From Candidatus Omnitrophota bacterium (GTDB lineage: Bacteria; Omnitrophota; Gorgyraeia; Zapsychrales; Fredricksoniimonadaceae): DNA of 64,000 bases. Of the stretch, positions 9,018 through 30,621 are shown piece by piece. Every line of letters begins with the position of its first letter. Within the stretch, counting starts at the first letter, position 1. The notes beneath the pieces are model-generated. The model was given only the letters and a program-made list of their open reading frames with translations, was not told the DNA's origin and did not search any database. A program made the translations under genes and the position numbers. The DNA is taken from positions 15,237 to 79,236 of the forward strand of contig JADFXX010000004.1 in the NCBI GenBank assembly GCA_015233335.1, read 5' to 3'.

Positions 9018-10520
9018 TTAGTTTTTCTCCACTTCTATCCGAGGAAACAGCGGAGGGTGAGCCTTTAAAGGAGTGCCCGGTTTTAATTCTCCCCATACAG
9101 GCTTGGTTTGCCCTGCCCCCAAAATATCAAGAACAGCCGCCGTCTTCTGGGGCATAACAGGTGCCAGCATGATCGTGGCGATACGTAAGCCTTCGGCCGC
9201 AGCATATAATACGCGATTAGCCCCCGACATGTCTGTCTTGGCTAATTTCCAAGGGGCTTGAGCCTCCATGTATTTATTAAGCAGGCGCACATAGTCGAGC
9301 GCTGCACTCACAGCTTCCTGCACTTTGTATTGATTGACCAACTCTGCAATTGTGCCCGGCAAAGCACTGCCATGCGCTTTTATGTCTTCTTCGGCCGCGG
9401 TGAGAACACCGGGTTGAGGTATTTGCCCACCGTGATTCTTTTGGATCAAGCCGCTCACACGATTAAGCAGATTGCCAAAATCGTTAGCCAGATCGCTATT
9501 GAAGCATTTGATAAATGAGTCTGGCGTAAAATTGGCGTCCAATCCTAACACCATCTCGCGCATCAAATAAAAACGAACAGCATCCACCCCGTAAGTCTCG
9601 ATCAAATCCAGGGGGTTGACTACATTTCCCAATGACTTGCTCATCTTGGTGGAGCCAATCAGCCACCAGCCGTGGGCAAAAATGGTTTTGGGCAAATCTA
9701 CTCCCAAAGAAAAAAGCATGGTGGTCCAGTAAATGCAATGGGTCGTTAAAATGTCCTTCCCGATCAAATGCACATCTGCCGGCCACCATTTCCTAAACTT
9801 TTCATCGTCGCTGCCATAACCGGGGGCCGAAATATAATTGACCAGCGCATCGAACCACACATAGGTCACATAATCACTGTCAAAAGGAATTTCGATCCCC
9901 CAGTCCATGCGCGATTTTGGGCGGGAAATACACAAGTCCCCCAAGGGCTGACGGAGAAAGCCTAGCATTTCATTTTTGCGGTGCTCGGGCCGGATAAAAT
10001 CCGGATTTGACTGGATATGATCGATGAGCCTCTGCTGGTATTTGCCCATTCTAAAGAAATAGTTCTTTTCCTTGAGCCTTTTGACATCACGAAACTGACC
10101 CGAAGCATACTCATCCTCGGATATAAATCGCTCCTCGGCCACTGAATACCAGCCTTCGTATTCATCCGTATAAATATCCCCATTGTCGTGGACCTTTTGT
10201 AACACTAACTGGACAATTTTCTTATGGCGCTCTTGGGTGGTGCGGATAAAATCGTCAAACCGGATATCGAGCGTTTTCCAAAGGTTCAGAAATCTTGGGG
10301 CCAAATCATCGCAGTGAGCCTGAGGCAAAAGCCCCCGTTTTTGGGCTGCTTGCATGACTTTTTGACCGTGTTCATCCAAACCCGTCAAAAAAAAGACTTC
10401 CTCTCCGTTGCTGCGGTGATACCGGCTTAAAACATCAGCCAATATGGTGGTATACGCATGCCCAATATGCGGGGCGTCATTGACATAATATATTGGAGTA
10501 GTAACAAAAAATTTATTCAT
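9018..10520 (-). CDS. metG: Methionine--tRNA ligase
   Basis: 500 aa. Class I signatures PHIGHAYTT and KMSKSLGN. Confidence 0.95.
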   Translation of the reverse strand: MNKFFVTTPIYYVNDAPHIGHAYTTILADVLSRYHRSNGEEVFFLTGLDEHGQKVMQAAQKRGLLPQAHCDDLAPRFLNLWKTLDIRFDDFIRTTQERHKKIVQLVLQKVHDNGDIYTDEYEGWYSVAEERFISEDEYASGQFRDVKRLKEKNYFFRMGKYQQRLIDHIQSNPDFIRPEHRKNEMLGFLRQPLGDLCISRPKSRMDWGIEIPFDSDYVTYVWFDALVNYISAPGYGSDDEKFRKWWPADVHLIGKDILTTHCIYWTTMLFSLGVDLPKTIFAHGWWLIGSTKMSKSLGNVVNPLDLIETYGVDAVRFYLMREMVLGLDANFTPDSFIKCFNSDLANDFGNLLNRVSGLIQKNHGGQIPQPGVLTAAEEDIKAHGSALPGTIAELVNQYKVQEAVSAALDYVRLLNKYMEAQAPWKLAKTDMSGANRVLYAAAEGLRIATIMLAPVMPQKTAAVLDILGAGQTKPVWGELKPGTPLKAHPPLFPRIEVEKN

Positions 10521-15190: not shown

Positions 15191-15670
15191 TTATTTTGTC
15201 TTCAAAAGCACAACGGCATACGCGGCCATACCCTCTTGGGCGCCTATAAAACCCATTCCTTCATTGGTCCCGGCTTTAATGTTGACCTGGGAGGCCTCCA
15301 GTGCCAGCATACCCGCGATATTGTCCCTCATTTTTGATTTGTACGCCTGTAATTTCGGTTCTTGGGCCAAAATCATCACGTCGATATTTTCCACAACCCG
15401 ACCTGTATCTTGCACCATTTTGTATGTCTGCTTTAAAAAAACCGAACTGGACAGCCCCTTATATTTTAGATCGGTATTAGGAAAATGTTCCCCGATATCA
15501 CCTAAACCCGCAGCCCCTAAAAGGGCATCGCAAAGGGCATGCAAGACCACGTCCGCATCCGAATGTCCGTCAAGACCATGGGTGTGCGCCACTTCGATGC
15601 CGCCTAACATCAACTTGCGGCCGAATAGAAACCGGTGCACATCATGACCAAAACCTACCCTGAAGCTCAT
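15191..15670 (-). CDS. ispF: 2-C-methyl-D-erythritol 2,4-cyclodiphosphate synthase
   Basis: The track ORF is trimmed to ATG 15670 ([14 protein letters not shown]...), the canonical IspF start. ATGA overlap with the ispD stop. Confidence 0.9.
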
Positions 15671-16362
15671 AACGACCTCAATAACAATTGCCGCGCTAAC
15701 GTAATATCTTCCGGCGTTGTGACCTTGATATTGCGATAACTGCCCATGACCATCTGAACGCACACCCCCATACGTTCGACTAGAATCGCATCATCGGTAG
15801 CTTCTTCTTTATGTTTTCGAGCATGGGCCTTAACTAAAACATCCTTATGAAACCCCTGAGGTGTCTGCGCCTCCCACAATAAATCCCTCGGAGGAGTTTC
15901 TTTAATATCTAAAGTTTGACGATCGACCTTTTTAACAGTGAACTTGACCGGCACACCCGCTATGGCCGCTTTATTTTTTTTCAATGAAAAGAGTAAACGG
16001 TTGATCATGGCACGGTCAACAAAAGGCCTTGCCGCATCATGCACCAGAACTATACCGGTATCAGACGAAATTACCTTTAAACCGCACTTAACTGAATCCG
16101 CACGCAACTTGCCGCCAGCTACGACCAGACGTACTTTTTTAAATGCACCGGCCATACGGACAAATTGTGCCAAATGTCCCGCCGGTGCGACAATCACTAT
16201 GCTATCGATCAGGGCATGTGCCTCAAAAACCTTCAAACTATACGCTAATAAAGGCTTGCCTTTGAGCAAAACCAACGCTTTAGGAACATCCGCCTTCAAA
16301 CGCCGCCCCAAACCGGCAGCTACTACAATAACTTCGGTTTTCATTTTTAAGATAGTTGCCAA
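15667..16362 (-). CDS. ispD: 2-C-methyl-D-erythritol 4-phosphate cytidylyltransferase
   Basis: 231 aa. VIVVAAGLGRRLKADVPKALV N-terminal motif. Confidence 0.9.
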   Translation of the reverse strand: MATILKMKTEVIVVAAGLGRRLKADVPKALVLLKGKPLLAYSLKVFEAHALIDSIVIVAPAGHLAQFVRMAGAFKKVRLVVAGGKLRADSVKCGLKVISSDTGIVLVHDAARPFVDRAMINRLLFSLKKNKAAIAGVPVKFTVKKVDRQTLDIKETPPRDLLWEAQTPQGFHKDVLVKAHARKHKEEATDDAILVERMGVCVQMVMGSYRNIKVTTPEDITLARQLLLRSL

Positions 16363-16390
16363 ATTATGTCGTTTGTGCGGGGCCTGTCTC

Positions 16391-16502
16391 GGAGTTGATG
16401 TTAAGGTGCTCCTGATTCACCTTCGTTTACAGAAGCCCTATAAAAAGGGTTTCCCTTATTCGCCCCAAAATCAGTCACCGTCCGCCCCTTAACATCAACT
16501 CC
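16391..16502. repeat. 112-nt element bounded by a perfect 16-bp inverted repeat (element E)
   Basis: ggagttgatgttaagg (16391-16406) is the exact reverse complement of ccttaacatcaactcc (16487-16502). Inner pairings are ctgatt/aatcag and a ccct-ataaaa-aggg hairpin. Confidence 0.6.
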
Positions 16503-16560
16503 AAGCCACCCGCTAATCGTATTACGATCTTAACTACATTTCTATAATACTCAAAGAAGG

Positions 16561-16768
16561 GATAAAGTTGTTATTTTCAACTCACTGTCATTTTTAGTTA
16601 AAAATTGACTGTTTTTTAGGGAATCCCGAACCGTAGGGTGAGGGATGGCTGAACTTGTTTGAGCCTGAAGCTTCCAGAGAAGCTGAAGGCGAGTTGTTCA
16701 GCCACCTAAAAAATAGGCAATTTTTAACGTTAAGAAAATGACCGTGAGTTGAAAATAACAACTTTATC
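16561..16768. repeat. 208-nt multi-stem palindromic element, family 1 copy 1 (element A)
   Basis: 34-position outer stem (16561-16594/16735-16768, 1 mismatch), 23-position second stem, 25-nt one-sided bulge, 9-bp stem, and an apical 12-position stem with a tandem G.A and a caga loop (16675-16678). Paralog at 26546-26774. Confidence 0.7.
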
Positions 16769-16800
16769 TCCTCTTGCACGCTATCAAAATACAAGGCAGG

Positions 16801-17784
16801 TTACTGCCTTTCCATTTTAGCGAAAATCATCCGGCCGGCCTGGGTTTGCAGAGCTGAGGTCACAAAGACCTTGACCGTCTGCCCCAGAGCCCTGCGTCCG
16901 TCGCTCACCACCACCATGGTCCCGTCTTCCAAATAACCGATGGCCTGACTGGCCTCCTTGCCTTCCTTCAAAAGCCGGATCTCTAATTCTTCACCGGTAA
17001 AAACAACAGGCTTGACCGCGTTGACCAGATCATTGACATTGAGCATTTCAACACCCTGGATCGCGGCAATGCGGCTCAAATTAAAATCTGTCGTGCAGAT
17101 ACGGGCATCCATCAGTTTGGAAAGTTTGACGAGCTTTAAGTCCACCGCTTCAGAACCGCCAAAATCATCTTCATGAATACGCACATCCGCTGAGGAGTCT
17201 TTCTGCATATTTTTTAGAATTTCCATCCCCCGACGGCCGCGCTGGCGCTTGGTCTCATCCTCGGAATCAGCCAGCCTTTGCAATTCATGCAAAACAAAAC
17301 GGGGGACCACCAATCGTCCTCCCAAAAACCCTGTCTTAAAAATATCACTCACCCGCCCATCAATAATGGCACTGGTATCCAAAAGCACGACCCCGTCTTT
17401 TAATTCCTGGCGCTTAAAGCGCACGTAAGGAATGATGAGGTTAAATTCATCCTTGCCCCGAAGCGCCATCACCGCGCCCAAATAGGAAAAAGAAAGCGTC
17501 AGAATCACCCGCAGGATGGGTTTGAGCACATCCCCCAACGGCAGGAGAAAAAGGATGTCCGCCACTAAATTGGCCATAAAAATTCCAAGCAGCAGACCAA
17601 AAACCATGCTGGAAAGTCCGCGCACAGATACCTGCTTTAAAGTCGCCTCAACGGTAATCAGCAGTAACCCGCCTAAAACTCCCATCAAAACACCTGCCAG
17701 AGGGTGCTGATCAATACTCCCTACCTGATAACCGATAATGCCGCTGAGAATAGTAAAAAAAATGCGAATAAATAATAATGTCAT
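16801..17784 (-). CDS. yacL: Membrane-anchored PIN and TRAM domain protein (YacL family)
   Basis: 327 aa. N-terminal TM helices, a PIN-like core (VLLDTSAIIDGR), and a C-terminal TRAM-like beta domain. Follows radA as in Bacillus. Confidence 0.8.
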   Translation of the reverse strand: MTLLFIRIFFTILSGIIGYQVGSIDQHPLAGVLMGVLGGLLLITVEATLKQVSVRGLSSMVFGLLLGIFMANLVADILFLLPLGDVLKPILRVILTLSFSYLGAVMALRGKDEFNLIIPYVRFKRQELKDGVVLLDTSAIIDGRVSDIFKTGFLGGRLVVPRFVLHELQRLADSEDETKRQRGRRGMEILKNMQKDSSADVRIHEDDFGGSEAVDLKLVKLSKLMDARICTTDFNLSRIAAIQGVEMLNVNDLVNAVKPVVFTGEELEIRLLKEGKEASQAIGYLEDGTMVVVSDGRRALGQTVKVFVTSALQTQAGRMIFAKMERQ

Positions 17785-19886: not shown

Positions 19887-20660
19887 TCACTTAACATGCC
19901 CAAAAATCAGGCTCTCGTCCTCGGTGATGGGCCCTTGCACTTCACCGTGTATGAATTGCTGGATGACCGGATGTTTGGAATTCTTAATTTCCTCCGGTCG
20001 TCCGTCGGCTATGATCTGCCCCTTATAAAACATCGCAATCGAATCCGCCACCTGATAGGCGGAATTCATATCGTGCGTTACGACAATCGAGGTCACTTTA
20101 AGCTTGTTGCGCATTTCAACGATCAGATTGTTGATCGCAGACGCAGTGATCGGGTCAACACCGGTCGTCGGCTCATCGTACAATATAATGTGGGGCTCCA
20201 TGCACAGCACGCGGGCTAAACTCACGCGCTTTCTCATCCCGCCGGAAAGCTGAGAAGGCATCATATGTTCTACGTCTTTAAGCCCCACTAGCCCCAGGGA
20301 ATCACGCACACGGTCATTGACCGTTTTTCGATCCAGATTCATAAATTCATTGAGCACAAAACCGACATTGTCCCCGACATTCATGGAATCAAACAACGCC
20401 CCGCCTTGAAAAACCATGCCGATCTCCATACGCAGACGGTTGTAATCTTTTTCATTCAGATCCGTCACTTCAACACCATTGATCTTGATCGAACCGCTGT
20501 CCGGACGAACAAGTCCCACAATGTTCCTTAAAAGAACAGTTTTTCCGACACCTGAACGGCCGATCACGACCTTAGTCTCCCCGCGCTTTACAGTCAGGCT
20601 CAAATTATTGAGCACCATTTTTGGGCCTAAAACTTTATATAAATTACGGATCTCGATCAC
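19887..20660 (-). CDS. mlaF: ABC transporter ATP-binding protein MlaF
   Basis: 257 aa. Walker A GRSGVGKT, signature LSGGMRKR, Walker B ILYDEPT. GTG start. Confidence 0.8.
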   Translation of the reverse strand: MIEIRNLYKVLGPKMVLNNLSLTVKRGETKVVIGRSGVGKTVLLRNIVGLVRPDSGSIKINGVEVTDLNEKDYNRLRMEIGMVFQGGALFDSMNVGDNVGFVLNEFMNLDRKTVNDRVRDSLGLVGLKDVEHMMPSQLSGGMRKRVSLARVLCMEPHIILYDEPTTGVDPITASAINNLIVEMRNKLKVTSIVVTHDMNSAYQVADSIAMFYKGQIIADGRPEEIKNSKHPVIQQFIHGEVQGPITEDESLIFGHVK

Positions 20661-20673
20661 TTGTCCATCTCTC

Positions 20674-20790
20674 TAAAGACATTGGGATAATTTATGGAGC
20701 TAAAATGCGTGCTTTTGCCGCCCGACTTATCCAGGAATCAAACTAAGGCAATTAGCATTTTGGCGGAATAAATTCATCCCAATGTCTTTA
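20674..20790. repeat. 117-nt palindromic element, family 2 copy 1 (element D1), between mlaE and mlaF
   Basis: 15-bp perfect outer inverted repeat (20674-20688/20776-20790), then 7-bp, a 6x6 loop, and 7-bp. The 60-nt core 20702-20761 is 54/60 identical to 27529-27588. Confidence 0.7.
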
Positions 20791-25067: not shown

Positions 25068-25613
25068 TTAATCTTTCTGTTCTAAATTCCTGATTTTATC
25101 CCGGATCTCGGCTGCCCGCTCGAAATCTTCGGCCGCAATAGCCGACTGCAGCTGCTCTTTTAACCCCTCCAAGGTCTCGGTTACAACTAAAAGAGGGCGC
25201 TCTTCTTTCGACGAAGCCGCTAAATTCTCTTTTTGAAATGAAGACGGTGTTTTCCCTAAATATTTATTCGAACCGTGGATCTTGCGCAACAGCCCGCTTA
25301 AATGCTCCTTAAAAGAGGTGTAGCATTCACTGCAGCCTAACCGACCAAACTTACGGAAATCCTCATAAGGCAATGCACAACGGGAGCATTGCAAGGGATT
25401 TTTCTCGTTCTCTTTCGAAGAAGCAGGCTTGACGGTATCTGATAATCCTGCTAATAAATCTGCCAGACCGAATTGCTGCTCCATCTGAGCACTTTTTTGA
25501 CGGGCGCATTCTTCGCACAAATGCATCTCCGACATCTGCTCATCGACAATTTCAGTCAAATGCACAGTTGCTTTTTTCTTACCGCAAATATCACAGGTCA
25601 TATTTGACGCCAT
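25068..25613 (-). CDS. mcsA: McsA (zinc-finger plus UVR-motif activator of McsB)
   Basis: 181 aa. CDICGKK...CEEC and CSRC...CSEC zinc motifs. C-terminal UVR motif EDFERAAEIRDKIRNLE. Confidence 0.8.
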   Translation of the reverse strand: MASNMTCDICGKKKATVHLTEIVDEQMSEMHLCEECARQKSAQMEQQFGLADLLAGLSDTVKPASSKENEKNPLQCSRCALPYEDFRKFGRLGCSECYTSFKEHLSGLLRKIHGSNKYLGKTPSSFQKENLAASSKEERPLLVVTETLEGLKEQLQSAIAAEDFERAAEIRDKIRNLEQKD

Positions 25614-26460
25614 CTTTTTTAGTCAGCTGATGGAAGTTATCTAACAATTTACGTGTTACGGCCCCCGGACGGCCGTCCCCGATCAAACGTCCGTCAACCT
25701 TAACCACAGGGATTAATTCCGCCGCAGTCCCGGTCAGGAAACATTCCTTAGCATTATACAATTCATGCCGGGTCATATAACCTTCCGACACCTTGATCTT
25801 CATCTTTCGGGCTAATTCCAGGATCGCCTCACAGGTAATACCTTTTAAACGGCCCAAATGTGGGGTCGAAAGCACCCCGTTTTTATAGATGAACACATTG
25901 TCCCCCGTGCATTCGGCGATATATCCGTTTTCCTCCAACATGATCGCCTCGTTATAACCGCAATGAGAAGCCTCCATCTTAGCCAGAATGTTATTGAGAT
26001 AATTCAGCGACTTAAGCTGAGGATTTAAGGCATTCGGATGGTTCTTGACCGTCGGCACAGTGATGATCTCCATTCCCTTCTGATAAAGTTGGACCGGATA
26101 TAAAACGATCTTGTCGGCAATGATGATCACATTGGGCTTTCCGAAGCATTTACGCGGATCAAGACCCAGATCCCCATCGCCGCGGCTGACGACCAGACGG
26201 ATGTAGCCGTCTTTGATCTTATTGGCCTTCAACGTAGCCACGACCGCATCGATCATTTCCTTCTTGGTCATACGAGGGTCGATCATGAGCGTGTGCAGTG
26301 TTTCAAATAAACGGTCGATATGTTCTTTGAGGCGAAATACCCGCGAATCATACGAACGGATCCCCTCAAAACCGCCGTCCCCATAAAGAAACCCATGGTC
26401 AAACACCGACACCTTGGCGTTTTCCTTGTCCACCAGTTTTCCATTAAGGTAAATCTTCAT
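25591..26460 (-). CDS. ilvE: Branched-chain-amino-acid aminotransferase (class IV aminotransferase)
   Basis: 289 aa. ...VSVFDHGFLYGDGGFEGIR... is typical of fold-type IV IlvE. 23-nt overlap with mcsA. Confidence 0.85.
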   Translation of the reverse strand: MKIYLNGKLVDKENAKVSVFDHGFLYGDGGFEGIRSYDSRVFRLKEHIDRLFETLHTLMIDPRMTKKEMIDAVVATLKANKIKDGYIRLVVSRGDGDLGLDPRKCFGKPNVIIIADKIVLYPVQLYQKGMEIITVPTVKNHPNALNPQLKSLNYLNNILAKMEASHCGYNEAIMLEENGYIAECTGDNVFIYKNGVLSTPHLGRLKGITCEAILELARKMKIKVSEGYMTRHELYNAKECFLTGTAAELIPVVKVDGRLIGDGRPGAVTRKLLDNFHQLTKKDGVKYDL

Positions 26461-26545
26461 AATCTCCCTTTCGCTCTTACTCCGTGAAGGATGAATAGCT
26501 GTTCACCCACGCAAATCTACTTAGCACCTCTATTTTCATTATATA

Positions 26546-26774
26546 AGACCGTAGGACTAAATTTGTTATTTTTGATCCTGTGTCGTTTTTAGCCAAGAAA
26601 TTTATGATAACGAGGTCCTTTTAGGGCTTCAGCCTTAAAATGGTCAAACTTGTTTGAGCTCGAAGCTTCCAGAGAAGCTGAGAGCGAGTTGTTTGACCAC
26701 CTCGTCAGCACAGGTTTTTTGGCGTTAAGAAAACGACCTCAGGATCAAAAATAACAAATTTAGCCCTAAGGTCT
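26546..26774. repeat. 229-nt multi-stem palindromic element, family 1 copy 2 (element B)
   Basis: About 44-nt arms (26546-26589/26730-26774; 2 mismatches, one 1x2 loop). It has the same internal-loop residues (tag / cgttaag), the same 9-bp stem and the same apical module as element A. Apical loop 26670-26673. Confidence 0.7.
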
Positions 26775-26798: not shown

Positions 26799-27479
26799 TT
26801 ATTTCGAAAGCACCGGAGTCTCCAGCAAGCCGTCTTTCATGGCGATCACCCGCTGGGTGCGGCTGGCTATTTTTTCATCGTGCGTCACGATGACGACCGT
26901 CACCCTGTGACTGTGATTAAGCCCTAAAAGCGTGTCCATGACCGCATGACCGCTCACCGAATCCAGATTGCCGGTCGGCTCATCGCAAAAAACGACCTTA
27001 GGCCCGTTCATCAAAGCACGCGCGATTGCCACCCTCTGCTGCTCGCCGCCGGAAAGCTGATTGGGCCTATGTAAAGCACGCGGTCCCAAGCCTAACTGAT
27101 CTAATAATTTTAACCCCGCAAATTCAATTGTGCTTGTTTTTCTTGAATTTTCTTTGATCATGGCCGGCAGGACCACATTTTCCAGCGCCGTTAATTCCGG
27201 CAACAAATGATACGATTGAAATACAAAACCCATTTCAGTATTGCGGGCCTGGGCACGCTTAACATCCGTCAGACCATATAAATTCTGGCCCCTAAAGATT
27301 ACCTGTCCTTCATTAGGCAGATCCAAACCGCCTAAAATATGAAGTAAAGTGGATTTTCCCGCACCCGAAGGTCCTGATATAGCTACGACCTCTCCTGCAT
27401 CAATGCTCAGGTCCACACCTTTAAGTACATGCAAAGGACCGGGGTATGCTTTGTGAATATTGATAGCTTCAATTAACAT
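26799..27479 (-). CDS. lolD: Lipoprotein-releasing system ATP-binding protein LolD
   Basis: 226 aa. Walker [10 protein letters not shown], signature LSGGEQQR, Walker B VFCDEPT. Downstream of an FtsX/LolCE-type permease. Confidence 0.8.
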
Positions 27480-27506
27480 TATGAAATCCCCTATGCGTCA
27501 AATAGG

Positions 27507-27610
27507 CATTGAGATAATTTTTTTAGACAAAATGCGTGCTTTTGCCGCCCAACTTATCCAAGAATAAAACTAAGGTATTTAGTATTTTAGCTGAAAAAAT
27601 TATCCCAACG
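27507..27610. repeat. 104-nt palindromic element, family 2 copy 2 (element D2), between lolC/E and lolD
   Basis: Outer inverted repeat cattgagataattttt / aaaaattatcccaacg (2 mismatches). The core 27529-27588 is 90 percent identical to D1. Confidence 0.7.
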
Positions 27611-27626
27611 ACTGTTTAATCCCATC

Positions 27627-30452: not shown

Positions 30453-30621
30453 GGATGAACAGCTATTATGTATGCGGCACATTAAGGAATTTTTCGCCAA
30501 AAGTCTTCTTAATTTTACTGCAAGAATGTTCCAAATAAAGAGAATCTTTAGAGCATTGTTGCCGTAAATTTAAGAAGACGGCGAAAATATTCCGTGCCGC
30601 ATACATAATAGCTGTTCATCC
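30453..30621. repeat. 169-nt near-perfect hairpin element (element C) immediately 3' of recQ
   Basis: 28-bp perfect terminal stem (30453-30480/30594-30621). Then a 13-bp and a 14-position stem separated by attaa and aaaa bulges. The roughly 49-nt centre is itself partly self-complementary. Confidence 0.75.

Follow-up and report, generated by a model that had tools for sequence, protein, structure and literature searches.

A folded long-hairpin intergenic repeat of Candidatus Omnitrophota with the probable lifestyle of a mobile element

Two copies of a long hairpin occupy intergenic spacers of the 64,000-nt stretch of DNA analysed here (the window; Candidatus Omnitrophota bacterium, assembly GCA_015233335.1, contig JADFXX010000004.1, positions 15,237–79,236), copy 1 next to ispD and copy 2 between lolD and ilvE (Table 1). 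Both belong to an undescribed family of folded, intergenic repeats of ~235 nt that occurs in some genomes of Candidatus Omnitrophota, a group of uncultured, ultra-small bacteria. Our analysis indicates that the element is probably a non-autonomous mobile long-hairpin repeat, specific to a clade of these bacteria, with a lifestyle like that of miniature inverted-repeat transposable elements (MITEs) or of REPINs, hairpins made of two inverted repetitive extragenic palindromic (REP) sequences. The paired changes that distinguish the two copies are those of a mobile repeat, not of an RNA that regulates the lolD/ilvE–clpC operon, and some of the apparent compensation probably arose by templated copying.

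Conservation of the fold was assessed on an alignment (A3) of 29 distinct full copies, for which RNAalifold gave a consensus of 61 pairs. In total, 96% of the pair cells are paired, and double changes are found at 39 of the 61 pairs (178 cells). None of 500 column shuffles reached any of five pairing measures, and pairing falls to 41–54% when the 3' partners are slid by 1–3 columns. The middle stem, which the alignment does not capture, was tested separately by partner binding; its mean energy is –12.7 kcal/mol with its own partner and –5.2 kcal/mol with partners from the other subtypes. The pairing, the double changes and the shuffles bear out the initial annotation of this DNA, which had held that random decay of a repeat would not produce such a pattern.

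The repeat has an elaborate architecture. A terminal stem of ~25 bp, whose outermost 8–12 bp are subfamily-specific yet paired within each copy (for example, TAAGGGATAAATTT versus TTTGGATTCAATTT), is followed in most copies by an internal loop in which each strand carries G(A/G)AGCGA. Next come two stems, of 8 and 7 bp, between which a conserved A faces a GUUAA bulge; these are followed by a hypervariable middle stem and then by a three-way junction that carries a side hairpin and leads to the conserved apical module. The two helices around the GUUAA bulge (consensus helices 3 and 4, or P2 and P3) are paired in 98–99% of cells. The side hairpin is of two types: type A, ATCCC-GA-stem-GA-GGGAT, is found in copy 1, and type B, a plain 9-bp hairpin, in copy 2. 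The apical module begins at its base with a 9-bp stem, above which the asymmetric loop ttgtttga/gagtt leads to a 4-bp stem (gctc/gagc); a tandem G.A step separates this stem from a 6-bp one (agcttc/gaagct), which is capped by a caga loop. Two copies, L003b and L037a, have Watson–Crick T-A and G-C pairs (tg/ca) in place of the tandem G.A step, which thus behaves as part of a continuous helix. Two known motifs were considered for the internal loops and rejected: a K-turn at the A/GUUAA bulge, because inspection shows A.A and not G.A at positions 1b/1n, and a sarcin-ricin or loop E motif at UUGUUUGA/GAGUU, because the AGUA/GAA signature is absent. As a whole, copy 2 is predicted to fold into a single rod with the side hairpin at –114 kcal/mol (z = –13.8), and its complementary strand is almost as stable (–109 kcal/mol). 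Its terminal arms (26546–26580 and 26740–26774) are 94% complementary, and those of copy 1 (16554–16594 and 16735–16775) are 93% complementary.

The comparison of the two window copies was the starting point of the initial annotation. By direct reading, the gapless alignment of 16647–16707 with 26642–26702 has 51 of 61 identities, as had been reported, and the ten differences indeed resolve into five swaps that each preserve a Watson–Crick pair, for which the chance under random substitution is ~5e-10. Three of them lie in the 9-bp stem (ctg>tca with cag>tga; 26641–26649 and 26691–26699). The other two (ct>tc with ag>ga) are paired as claimed but had been misplaced: they sit in the 4-bp stem (26658–26661 and 26682–26685), below the tandem G.A step, and not in the terminal 6-bp stem. 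The paired differences described for the outer stems are also present in the sequence, and both 63-nt apical modules fold as had been drawn (z of about –5 to –6). The reported invariance of the unpaired residues holds between the two window copies (ttgtttga, gagtt, the ga steps and caga) but not across the wider family, where ttgtttga is replaced by tgttcga or tgtccga, the caga loop has at least six variants and, as described above, even the G.A step may change. Furthermore, the GGTCAAAC/GTTTGACC form of the 9-bp stem is strictly linked to the type B side hairpin (8 of 29 copies). The three swaps in this stem are always co-inherited as one haplotype, and therefore they record a single subfamily split rather than three independent tests of pairing.

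The fold is also specific to one strand. In all 29 copies, the + strand of the element is more stable than its complement; the difference averages –14.7 kcal/mol with RNA parameters and –4.9 kcal/mol with DNA parameters. A transition in a duplex yields G.T or A.C with equal probability. Variant states private to one copy are symmetric in this respect (9 G.U and 10 A.C) and thus look like neutral decay after insertion. By comparison, the states shared by at least two copies comprise 9 G.U and 1 A.C (Fisher p = 0.044, on small counts from copies that are not phylogenetically independent), and G.T states at two pairs have spread to 9 and 10 copies. The excess of shared G.U states implies that the variants that were copied had passed a filter for pairing of the + strand. 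This contrast suggests that the fold is needed for propagation of the element and not for function at each locus, and it provides a simple test by which a propagation fold may be told from a host fold.

Consistent with a mobile element, the sites that are filled in the window are empty in relatives. Syntenic loci of ~20 kb were examined in six relatives (in the L041–L047 range), whose IlvE proteins are 84–89% identical, and the profile search found no full copy in these 20-kb loci. The lolD–ilvE site lacks a copy in all six; the spacer is –4, 21, 23, 24 or 60 nt long, or contains a single additional small gene, compared with 338 nt in the window. The YCF81_N-like/ispD junction, which spans 438 nt in the window and in which the genes overlap or abut in four relatives, is empty in five of the six. 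In the remaining one, L042 (GCA_015233675.1), this spacer holds three mini-copies of 57–93 nt that represent three subfamilies. Taken together, the independent insertions into the same spacer, the empty sites and the deletion derivatives amount to the behaviour of mobile DNA. In the closest relative, L041, the empty lolD–ilvE spacer contains at positions 9962–9990 the sequence GACCTTAGG, preceded by AAATTTATC; GACCTTAGG is identical to part of the outer stem of copy 2 and could have been left behind by an old copy or have been the original target. The idea that outer stems derive from the target was dropped, as the L041 match did not extend to copy 1. In the same locus, lolC, lolD, mcsB, clpC, mlaF and ispD are each called as two or three fragments, which suggests assembly frameshift errors rather than pseudogenes.

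The family is dispersed, with at least 40 copies found. A degenerate pattern built on the apical module was scanned against metagenome-assembled genomes (MAGs) and metagenome contigs, and it found 4 copies in 2 Candidatus Omnitrophota MAGs and 36 matched metagenome contigs, with 30 true copies and 6 chance matches. A profile of full-length copies run over 296 kb of fetched DNA yielded 39 strong matches (~40 copies in this DNA), including two head-to-head pairs; it added three copies overlooked by the pattern, and their apical modules are clearly more divergent. Nine of the 36 contigs terminate within a copy, as is typical of repeats at which assemblies break. Every copy is intergenic, no open reading frame (ORF) spans a copy, and many copies lie 0–35 nt from a stop codon. 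Relative to their neighbouring genes, 18 copies run in the opposite direction and 15 in the same one (p = 0.73), a mixed pattern; where both flanking genes are co-directional (17 copies), the division is 13 to 4 (p = 0.049), which may be a weak bias. The copies share no conserved ORF, and small ORFs in or near the element were rejected as candidate genes, since the 63-aa ORF of L023 and the 84-aa ORF of L017 are mutually unrelated; apparent protein conservation near some copies was traced to an adjacent hairpin repeat (family X, below). The viral contigs searched gave no match to the family, and a viral origin was rejected on this ground. Searches with Rfam 15 found no match in the window at gathering thresholds, only a 13.7-bit chance match to the element at E up to 10, and nothing on the family copies of seven further loci; membership in a known Rfam family was thereby rejected at gathering and permissive thresholds. 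The literature searched, including a 2023 survey of the phylum, describes no dispersed repeats in Omnitrophota.

One segment of the hairpin probably owes its pairing to a different process. In the main family, the loop carries 5' GAAGCGAC opposite 3' CAGGAGCGA, unpaired, whereas both window copies have a perfect helix at this place. The 3' arm of copy 2, caggatc, remains close to the family sequence CAGGAGC, while its 5' arm, gatcctg, is the exact complement and unlike GAAGCGAC. Likewise, the 3' arm of copy 1, gtgagtt, resembles the GTGGAGC of L001-type copies, and its 5' arm, aactcac, is the complement. Seven to eight one-sided changes that give exact complementarity, twice independently and in two subfamilies, are best explained by copying between the arms and not by stepwise compensatory mutation; quasi-palindrome template switching or hairpin-templated repair, both established mutational mechanisms, could be responsible. 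The five apical swaps fall into two blocks of adjacent bases and could likewise result from two block and two copying events instead of ten point mutations under selection. The initial annotation had warned that homogenisation of the two arms might mimic covariation. This is probably apt for the zipped segment but not for the whole hairpin, where asymmetric loops and G.T states persist; the inference of a constrained fold survives because copying alone should erase both.

Several observations weigh against a mobile element of a known kind. A target-site duplication was not found: whatever offset is taken for the boundaries, no consistent flush direct repeat exceeds 2–4 nt, a result that rests on copies with correctly placed boundaries, which are uncertain by a few bases. 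IS66-type ends (GTAA...) were rejected because their 8-bp duplication is absent. A transposase or partner protein was not seen among the 48 window ORFs scanned (top 25 families listed), which encode housekeeping functions, and an autonomous element with the same ends was not seen in the window or the loci, where only solo arms occur and no pair flanks an ORF. Mean pairwise identity is lowest in the termini (51%) and reaches 88% in the apical module, a contrast that is inflated because the copies were ascertained through the apical-module pattern. Variable termini around a conserved core are the reverse of a classical MITE and resemble a functional RNA core. The shared-versus-private contrast, with its few and non-independent counts, is supportive rather than conclusive. 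The nature of the folded strand is a further difficulty. C-GNA-G triloops, which are notably stable in DNA, form the tips of some side hairpins, and one copy (L029) has a C(UUCG)G loop on its side hairpin, while tolerance of G.T or G.U and tandem G.A occurs in both DNA and RNA; a single-stranded DNA (ssDNA) intermediate may be somewhat more likely than RNA. The folding strand in the window is both the leading-strand template and the transcribed template strand, and is not the strand expected to be exposed under an ssDNA mechanism of the IS200/IS605 (IS608) type.

Of the explanations that dispense with selection on the fold, the one considered holds that the element is purely a DNA palindrome, whose ends co-evolve for a transposase and whose interior is maintained by template switching or cruciform repair, which would make the apparently compensatory swaps products of copying. 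The one-sided conversion that zipped the AGCGA loop in both window copies, the adjacent blocks in which the swaps occur (ctg>tca/cag>tga and ct>tc/ag>ga), which fit a few multi-base events, and the subfamily-specific termini all agree with it. Such homogenisation should nevertheless erase internal loops, and the A/GUUAA bulge, the UUGUUUGA/GAGUU loop and the tandem G.A step persist across genomes. Nor would a mechanism acting on the duplex predict that G.T states spread while A.C states do not, or that the + strand is the more stable one in 29 of 29 copies, and pairing extends along the full 235 nt, far past a plausible transposase-binding end. We therefore consider this explanation unlikely. 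The same strand-specific fold, strong covariation and tolerance of G.U would suit a host-functional structured RNA family, either multi-copy small RNAs with promoters of their own or cis-acting mRNA elements for processing, stability or protein binding, with a core of three-way junction, tandem G.A steps and invariant loops that binds a protein or ligand and with incidental mobility. Well-conserved asymmetric loops and apical module inside variable closing stems, a tandem G.A step that turns Watson–Crick in two copies, as for a helix-continuing motif, and the C(UUCG)G loop of L029 would be in keeping with it. This is also improbable, as a known RNA family was not matched in Rfam even at E up to 10, and the folding strand of both window copies has neither a sigma-70-like promoter (the consensus scanned was that of sigma-70, and Omnitrophota promoters may differ) nor a T-rich terminator tail after the hairpin. 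A TATAAT 6 nt upstream of copy 1 and a TTATAT ahead of copy 2 had raised the possibility of an own promoter, which was rejected when the scan found no promoter-like site; the other copies share no upstream motif and nothing promoter-like at a fixed distance upstream. Mixed orientation excludes a uniform cis role in host mRNAs, private changes without strand bias make single loci look unconstrained, the same sites are empty in close relatives while derivatives reduced to the terminal stem occur, and the core conservation is partly an artefact of how the copies were ascertained.

A site for site-specific recombination, such as the integron attC site, in which a folded single strand is the substrate that marks cassettes, would account for structure being kept over sequence, for the strand-specific fold and for the conserved extrahelical bases. 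The copies, however, lie inside core housekeeping operons (lol, mla, clpC and isp) and not in cassette arrays, occur in both orientations and are about twice as long as the longest attC sites; no integrase lies in the vicinity, and direct reading found no RYYYAAC/GTTRRRY core-site pair at the stem base. This explanation can hardly hold. A more far-reaching proposal is that the conserved core, namely the three-way junction, the A/GUUAA bulge, the UUGUUUGA/GAGUU loop and the apical hairpin, is not passive cargo but the active single-stranded module of a new Omnitrophota-specific hairpin mobility system shared by five or more hairpin-repeat families. By analogy with IS110 bridge RNAs and the end hairpins of IS200/605, the module might act, as RNA or ssDNA, by recruiting or guiding a mobilisation enzyme, or might be a self-processing RNA. 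We regard this proposal, with its composition of the core and its suggested modes of action, as rather doubtful. The reading that we prefer, a non-autonomous mobile repeat, retains one half of the earlier proposal of selection on a folded nucleic acid: a folded single strand is kept, but a structured RNA or protein-binding site tied to lolD/ilvE–clpC is not what it serves. Dispersed copies, mixed orientation, empty sites in relatives, the lack of a + strand promoter in the scan and of an Rfam match all speak against a locus-specific role.

Copies of the repeat enter and vanish from the spacers of housekeeping operons in either orientation, and a folded single-stranded intermediate would be recognised during propagation by a putative enzyme, while occasional copying from arm to arm may keep or lengthen the palindrome. 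Copy 2 is a lineage-specific insertion at lolD–ilvE. As its most likely effect there, the lolCD–ilvE–mcsAB–clpC transcript, read from the opposite strand, would carry the complement hairpin, and this hairpin could serve as a site for RNA processing or for a double-strand-specific RNase, or as a barrier between lolCD and ilvE–mcsAB–clpC. More broadly, some Omnitrophota lineages harbour several families of very stable hairpin repeats within lol, mla, clpC and isp operons and near ribosomal protein genes. Such repeats break metagenome assemblies and may be mistaken for regulatory RNAs in covariation screens, and they may be used as strain-level markers. Should its mobilising enzyme come to light, the family might provide a useful model for the study of hairpin-dependent transposition in bacteria other than Proteobacteria.

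Table 1. The two window copies, the structural parts of copy 2 and the reduced copies of a relative. Coordinates refer to the window unless a locus is named.
Feature	Coordinates	Strand	Remarks
Copy 2, complete hairpin repeat	26546..26774	+	nhmmer 194 bits against the family profile; 229 nt
Copy 1, same family, type A side hairpin	16554..16775	+	Profile 204 bits
Copy 2 P1 5' arm with 'zipped' gatcctg	26546..26580	+	Corresponds to the unpaired AGCGAC loop of most family members
Copy 2 P1 3' arm including caggatc	26740..26774	+	Homologous to family CAGGAGC
Copy 2 P2 (gtcgtttt) and P3 (gccaag), 5' strands	26582..26597	+	Conserved 't-a-g' step between
Copy 2 P3 (tttggc) and P2 (aaaacgac), 3' strands	26718..26737	+	Conserved 5-nt bulge gttaa between
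Copy 2 P4, variable middle stem, 5' strand	26598..26618	+	Fold prediction, partner-binding test
Copy 2 P4, variable middle stem, 3' strand	26700..26717	+	Fold prediction, partner-binding test
Copy 2 type B side hairpin (ttttagggc-ttca-gccttaaaa), three-way junction	26619..26640	+	
Copy 2 apical module	26641..26699	+	Contains all five double swaps
L042 mini-copies	20043-20135, 20157-20213, 20249-20314 (L042)		Terminal stem and AGCGA loops only

The gene calls confirm the context given for copy 2 in the initial annotation, between lolD and ilvE–mcsA–mcsB–clpC. Copy 2 is flanked by a lolD-like gene (26799–27479, – strand) and ilvE (25591–26460, – strand), followed by mcsA, mcsB and clpC, and copy 1 by a YCF81_N-like gene (16801–17784, – strand) and ispD (15667–16362, – strand). 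All neighbouring genes are on the – strand, and both window copies are antisense to their own operons; for copy 2, the folding strand is the + strand of the window, antisense to lolD and ilvE. In the entire window (1–64000), 65 of 69 ORFs are on the – strand, including rpoB/rpoC, ribosomal protein genes and secY, and this genome combines diderm envelope systems (LolCDE, MlaEF and LptFG) with McsA, McsB and ClpC. The IlvE protein encoded in the window is 100% identical to an NCBI 'Candidatus Omnitrophica' protein, in line with an Omnitrophota MAG as its source. A terminator-like hairpin (AAGGCAGTAACCTGCCTT) with a T-rich tail, 18 nt away from where copy 1 ends, overlaps the YCF81_N-like stop codon at 16793–16810. 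Just upstream of three other copies (L003 3790–3830, L004 3070–3100 and L029 1222–1260) there is a short, conserved G+C-rich hairpin, CCCCTCTTTAT..AAAGAGGGG, after TTCAACTCCCCTAACC, which could be a terminator or another small repeat.

Other hairpin-repeat families accompany this one (family 1) in some spacers. A second family of ~117 nt is represented in the window at 20674–20790 (mlaF/mlaE) and 27500–27617 (lolD/lolC), with 84% identity over 98 nt and folds of –47 kcal/mol (z = –6.1) and –29 kcal/mol (z = –3.8), respectively. Its termini, AGACATTGGGATAATTT, resemble those of family 1, GCATTGTAAGGGATAAATTT, a likeness in sequence that hints at a common mobilisation machinery. Family X, at 30453–30621, is 169 nt long with 28-nt perfectly complementary ends (GGATGAACAGCTATTATGTATGCGGCAC and GTGCCGCATACATAATAGCTGTTCATCC); it lies immediately 5' of family 1 copies in L007/L023, L008, L022 and L036, and a collapsed form (GGATGAATAGCTGTTCACC) adjoins copy 2 at 26489–26507. 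Family Z, at 16385–16508 (GGAGTTGATGTTAAGG ... CCTTAACATCAACTCC), adjoins copy 1 in the same spacer and has folding energies between –50 and –57 kcal/mol (z = –6 to –7); the L032 copy has a related sequence on its 5' side. Family Y (CCATTGTATTTCCTTCTCAGGCACGCTCGCC ... TTCGAAGAAAACACAATG) and solo arms of family 1 occur upstream of full copies in L017 (4664–4909), L005 (4608–4876, – strand) and L011 (100–357), which suggests nested or clustered insertions. In addition, a long inverted repeat at 203–351, with 28-nt arms that are 89% complementary and 93 nt apart, overlaps the end of a Maf-like gene.

Among known repeat systems, REPINs are mobilised by RAYT (TnpA-REP) tyrosine transposases; no RAYT gene was found among the 48 window ORFs scanned (top 25 families listed). 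Compensatory changes are common in REPIN hairpins, whose fold is considered to matter in ssDNA or mRNA (PMC3116915). The present element resembles REPINs in being extragenic, multi-copy and non-coding, in its long hairpin with compensatory changes, and in occurring also as clusters and as decayed remnants; an obvious target-site duplication is lacking in both. It differs in its size, ~235 nt compared with the ~70–110 nt of a REPIN, which consists of two inverted REPs that are each a small palindrome, and in its three-way junction and conserved apical module. Consistent with this difference, the terminal arms alone do not fold as REPs would in a doublet (z = 0.18, 0.00, –0.07 and –0.48 against shuffles).

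Correia/NEMIS elements of Neisseria, RUP and BOX of Streptococcus and Nezha of cyanobacteria are bacterial MITEs that fold end to end. With these, as generally known, the element shares small size, non-coding character, multiple copies, inverted termini, insertion polymorphism between relatives, both orientations and long RNA hairpins. At ~235 nt and with 39 strong matches in 296 kb, it lies within the MITE range of less than ~600 bp for non-coding, multi-copy repeats; the window arms of 35–41 nt are 93–94% complementary, and the 29 full copies have terminal inverted repeats likewise. The filled window sites and the empty sites of relatives provide the insertion polymorphism. In classical MITEs the terminal inverted repeats are conserved and match those of a parent insertion sequence, and there is a target-site duplication, whereas the outermost stem of the element is its most variable part and no duplication was found. 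Enterobacterial repetitive intergenic consensus (ERIC) sequences, or intergenic repeat units (IRUs), are generally known as imperfect palindromes in the intergenic regions of operons, in either orientation and with length variants due to insertions and deletions, as is the element; we know of no mobilisation system for them. ERIC sequences, by comparison, are 127 bp long, belong to another phylum and have no sequence relation to the element, whose conserved fold is far more elaborate and which, unlike ERIC, shares its spacers with at least four other hairpin-repeat families. The likeness to attC sites lies in a strand-specific folded single strand that conserves its structure and a few unpaired bases rather than its sequence, whereas context, orientation, size and core sites all mismatch. 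With neither the REP-doublet arrangement nor a target-site duplication, the element is filed as a non-autonomous palindromic intergenic repeat.

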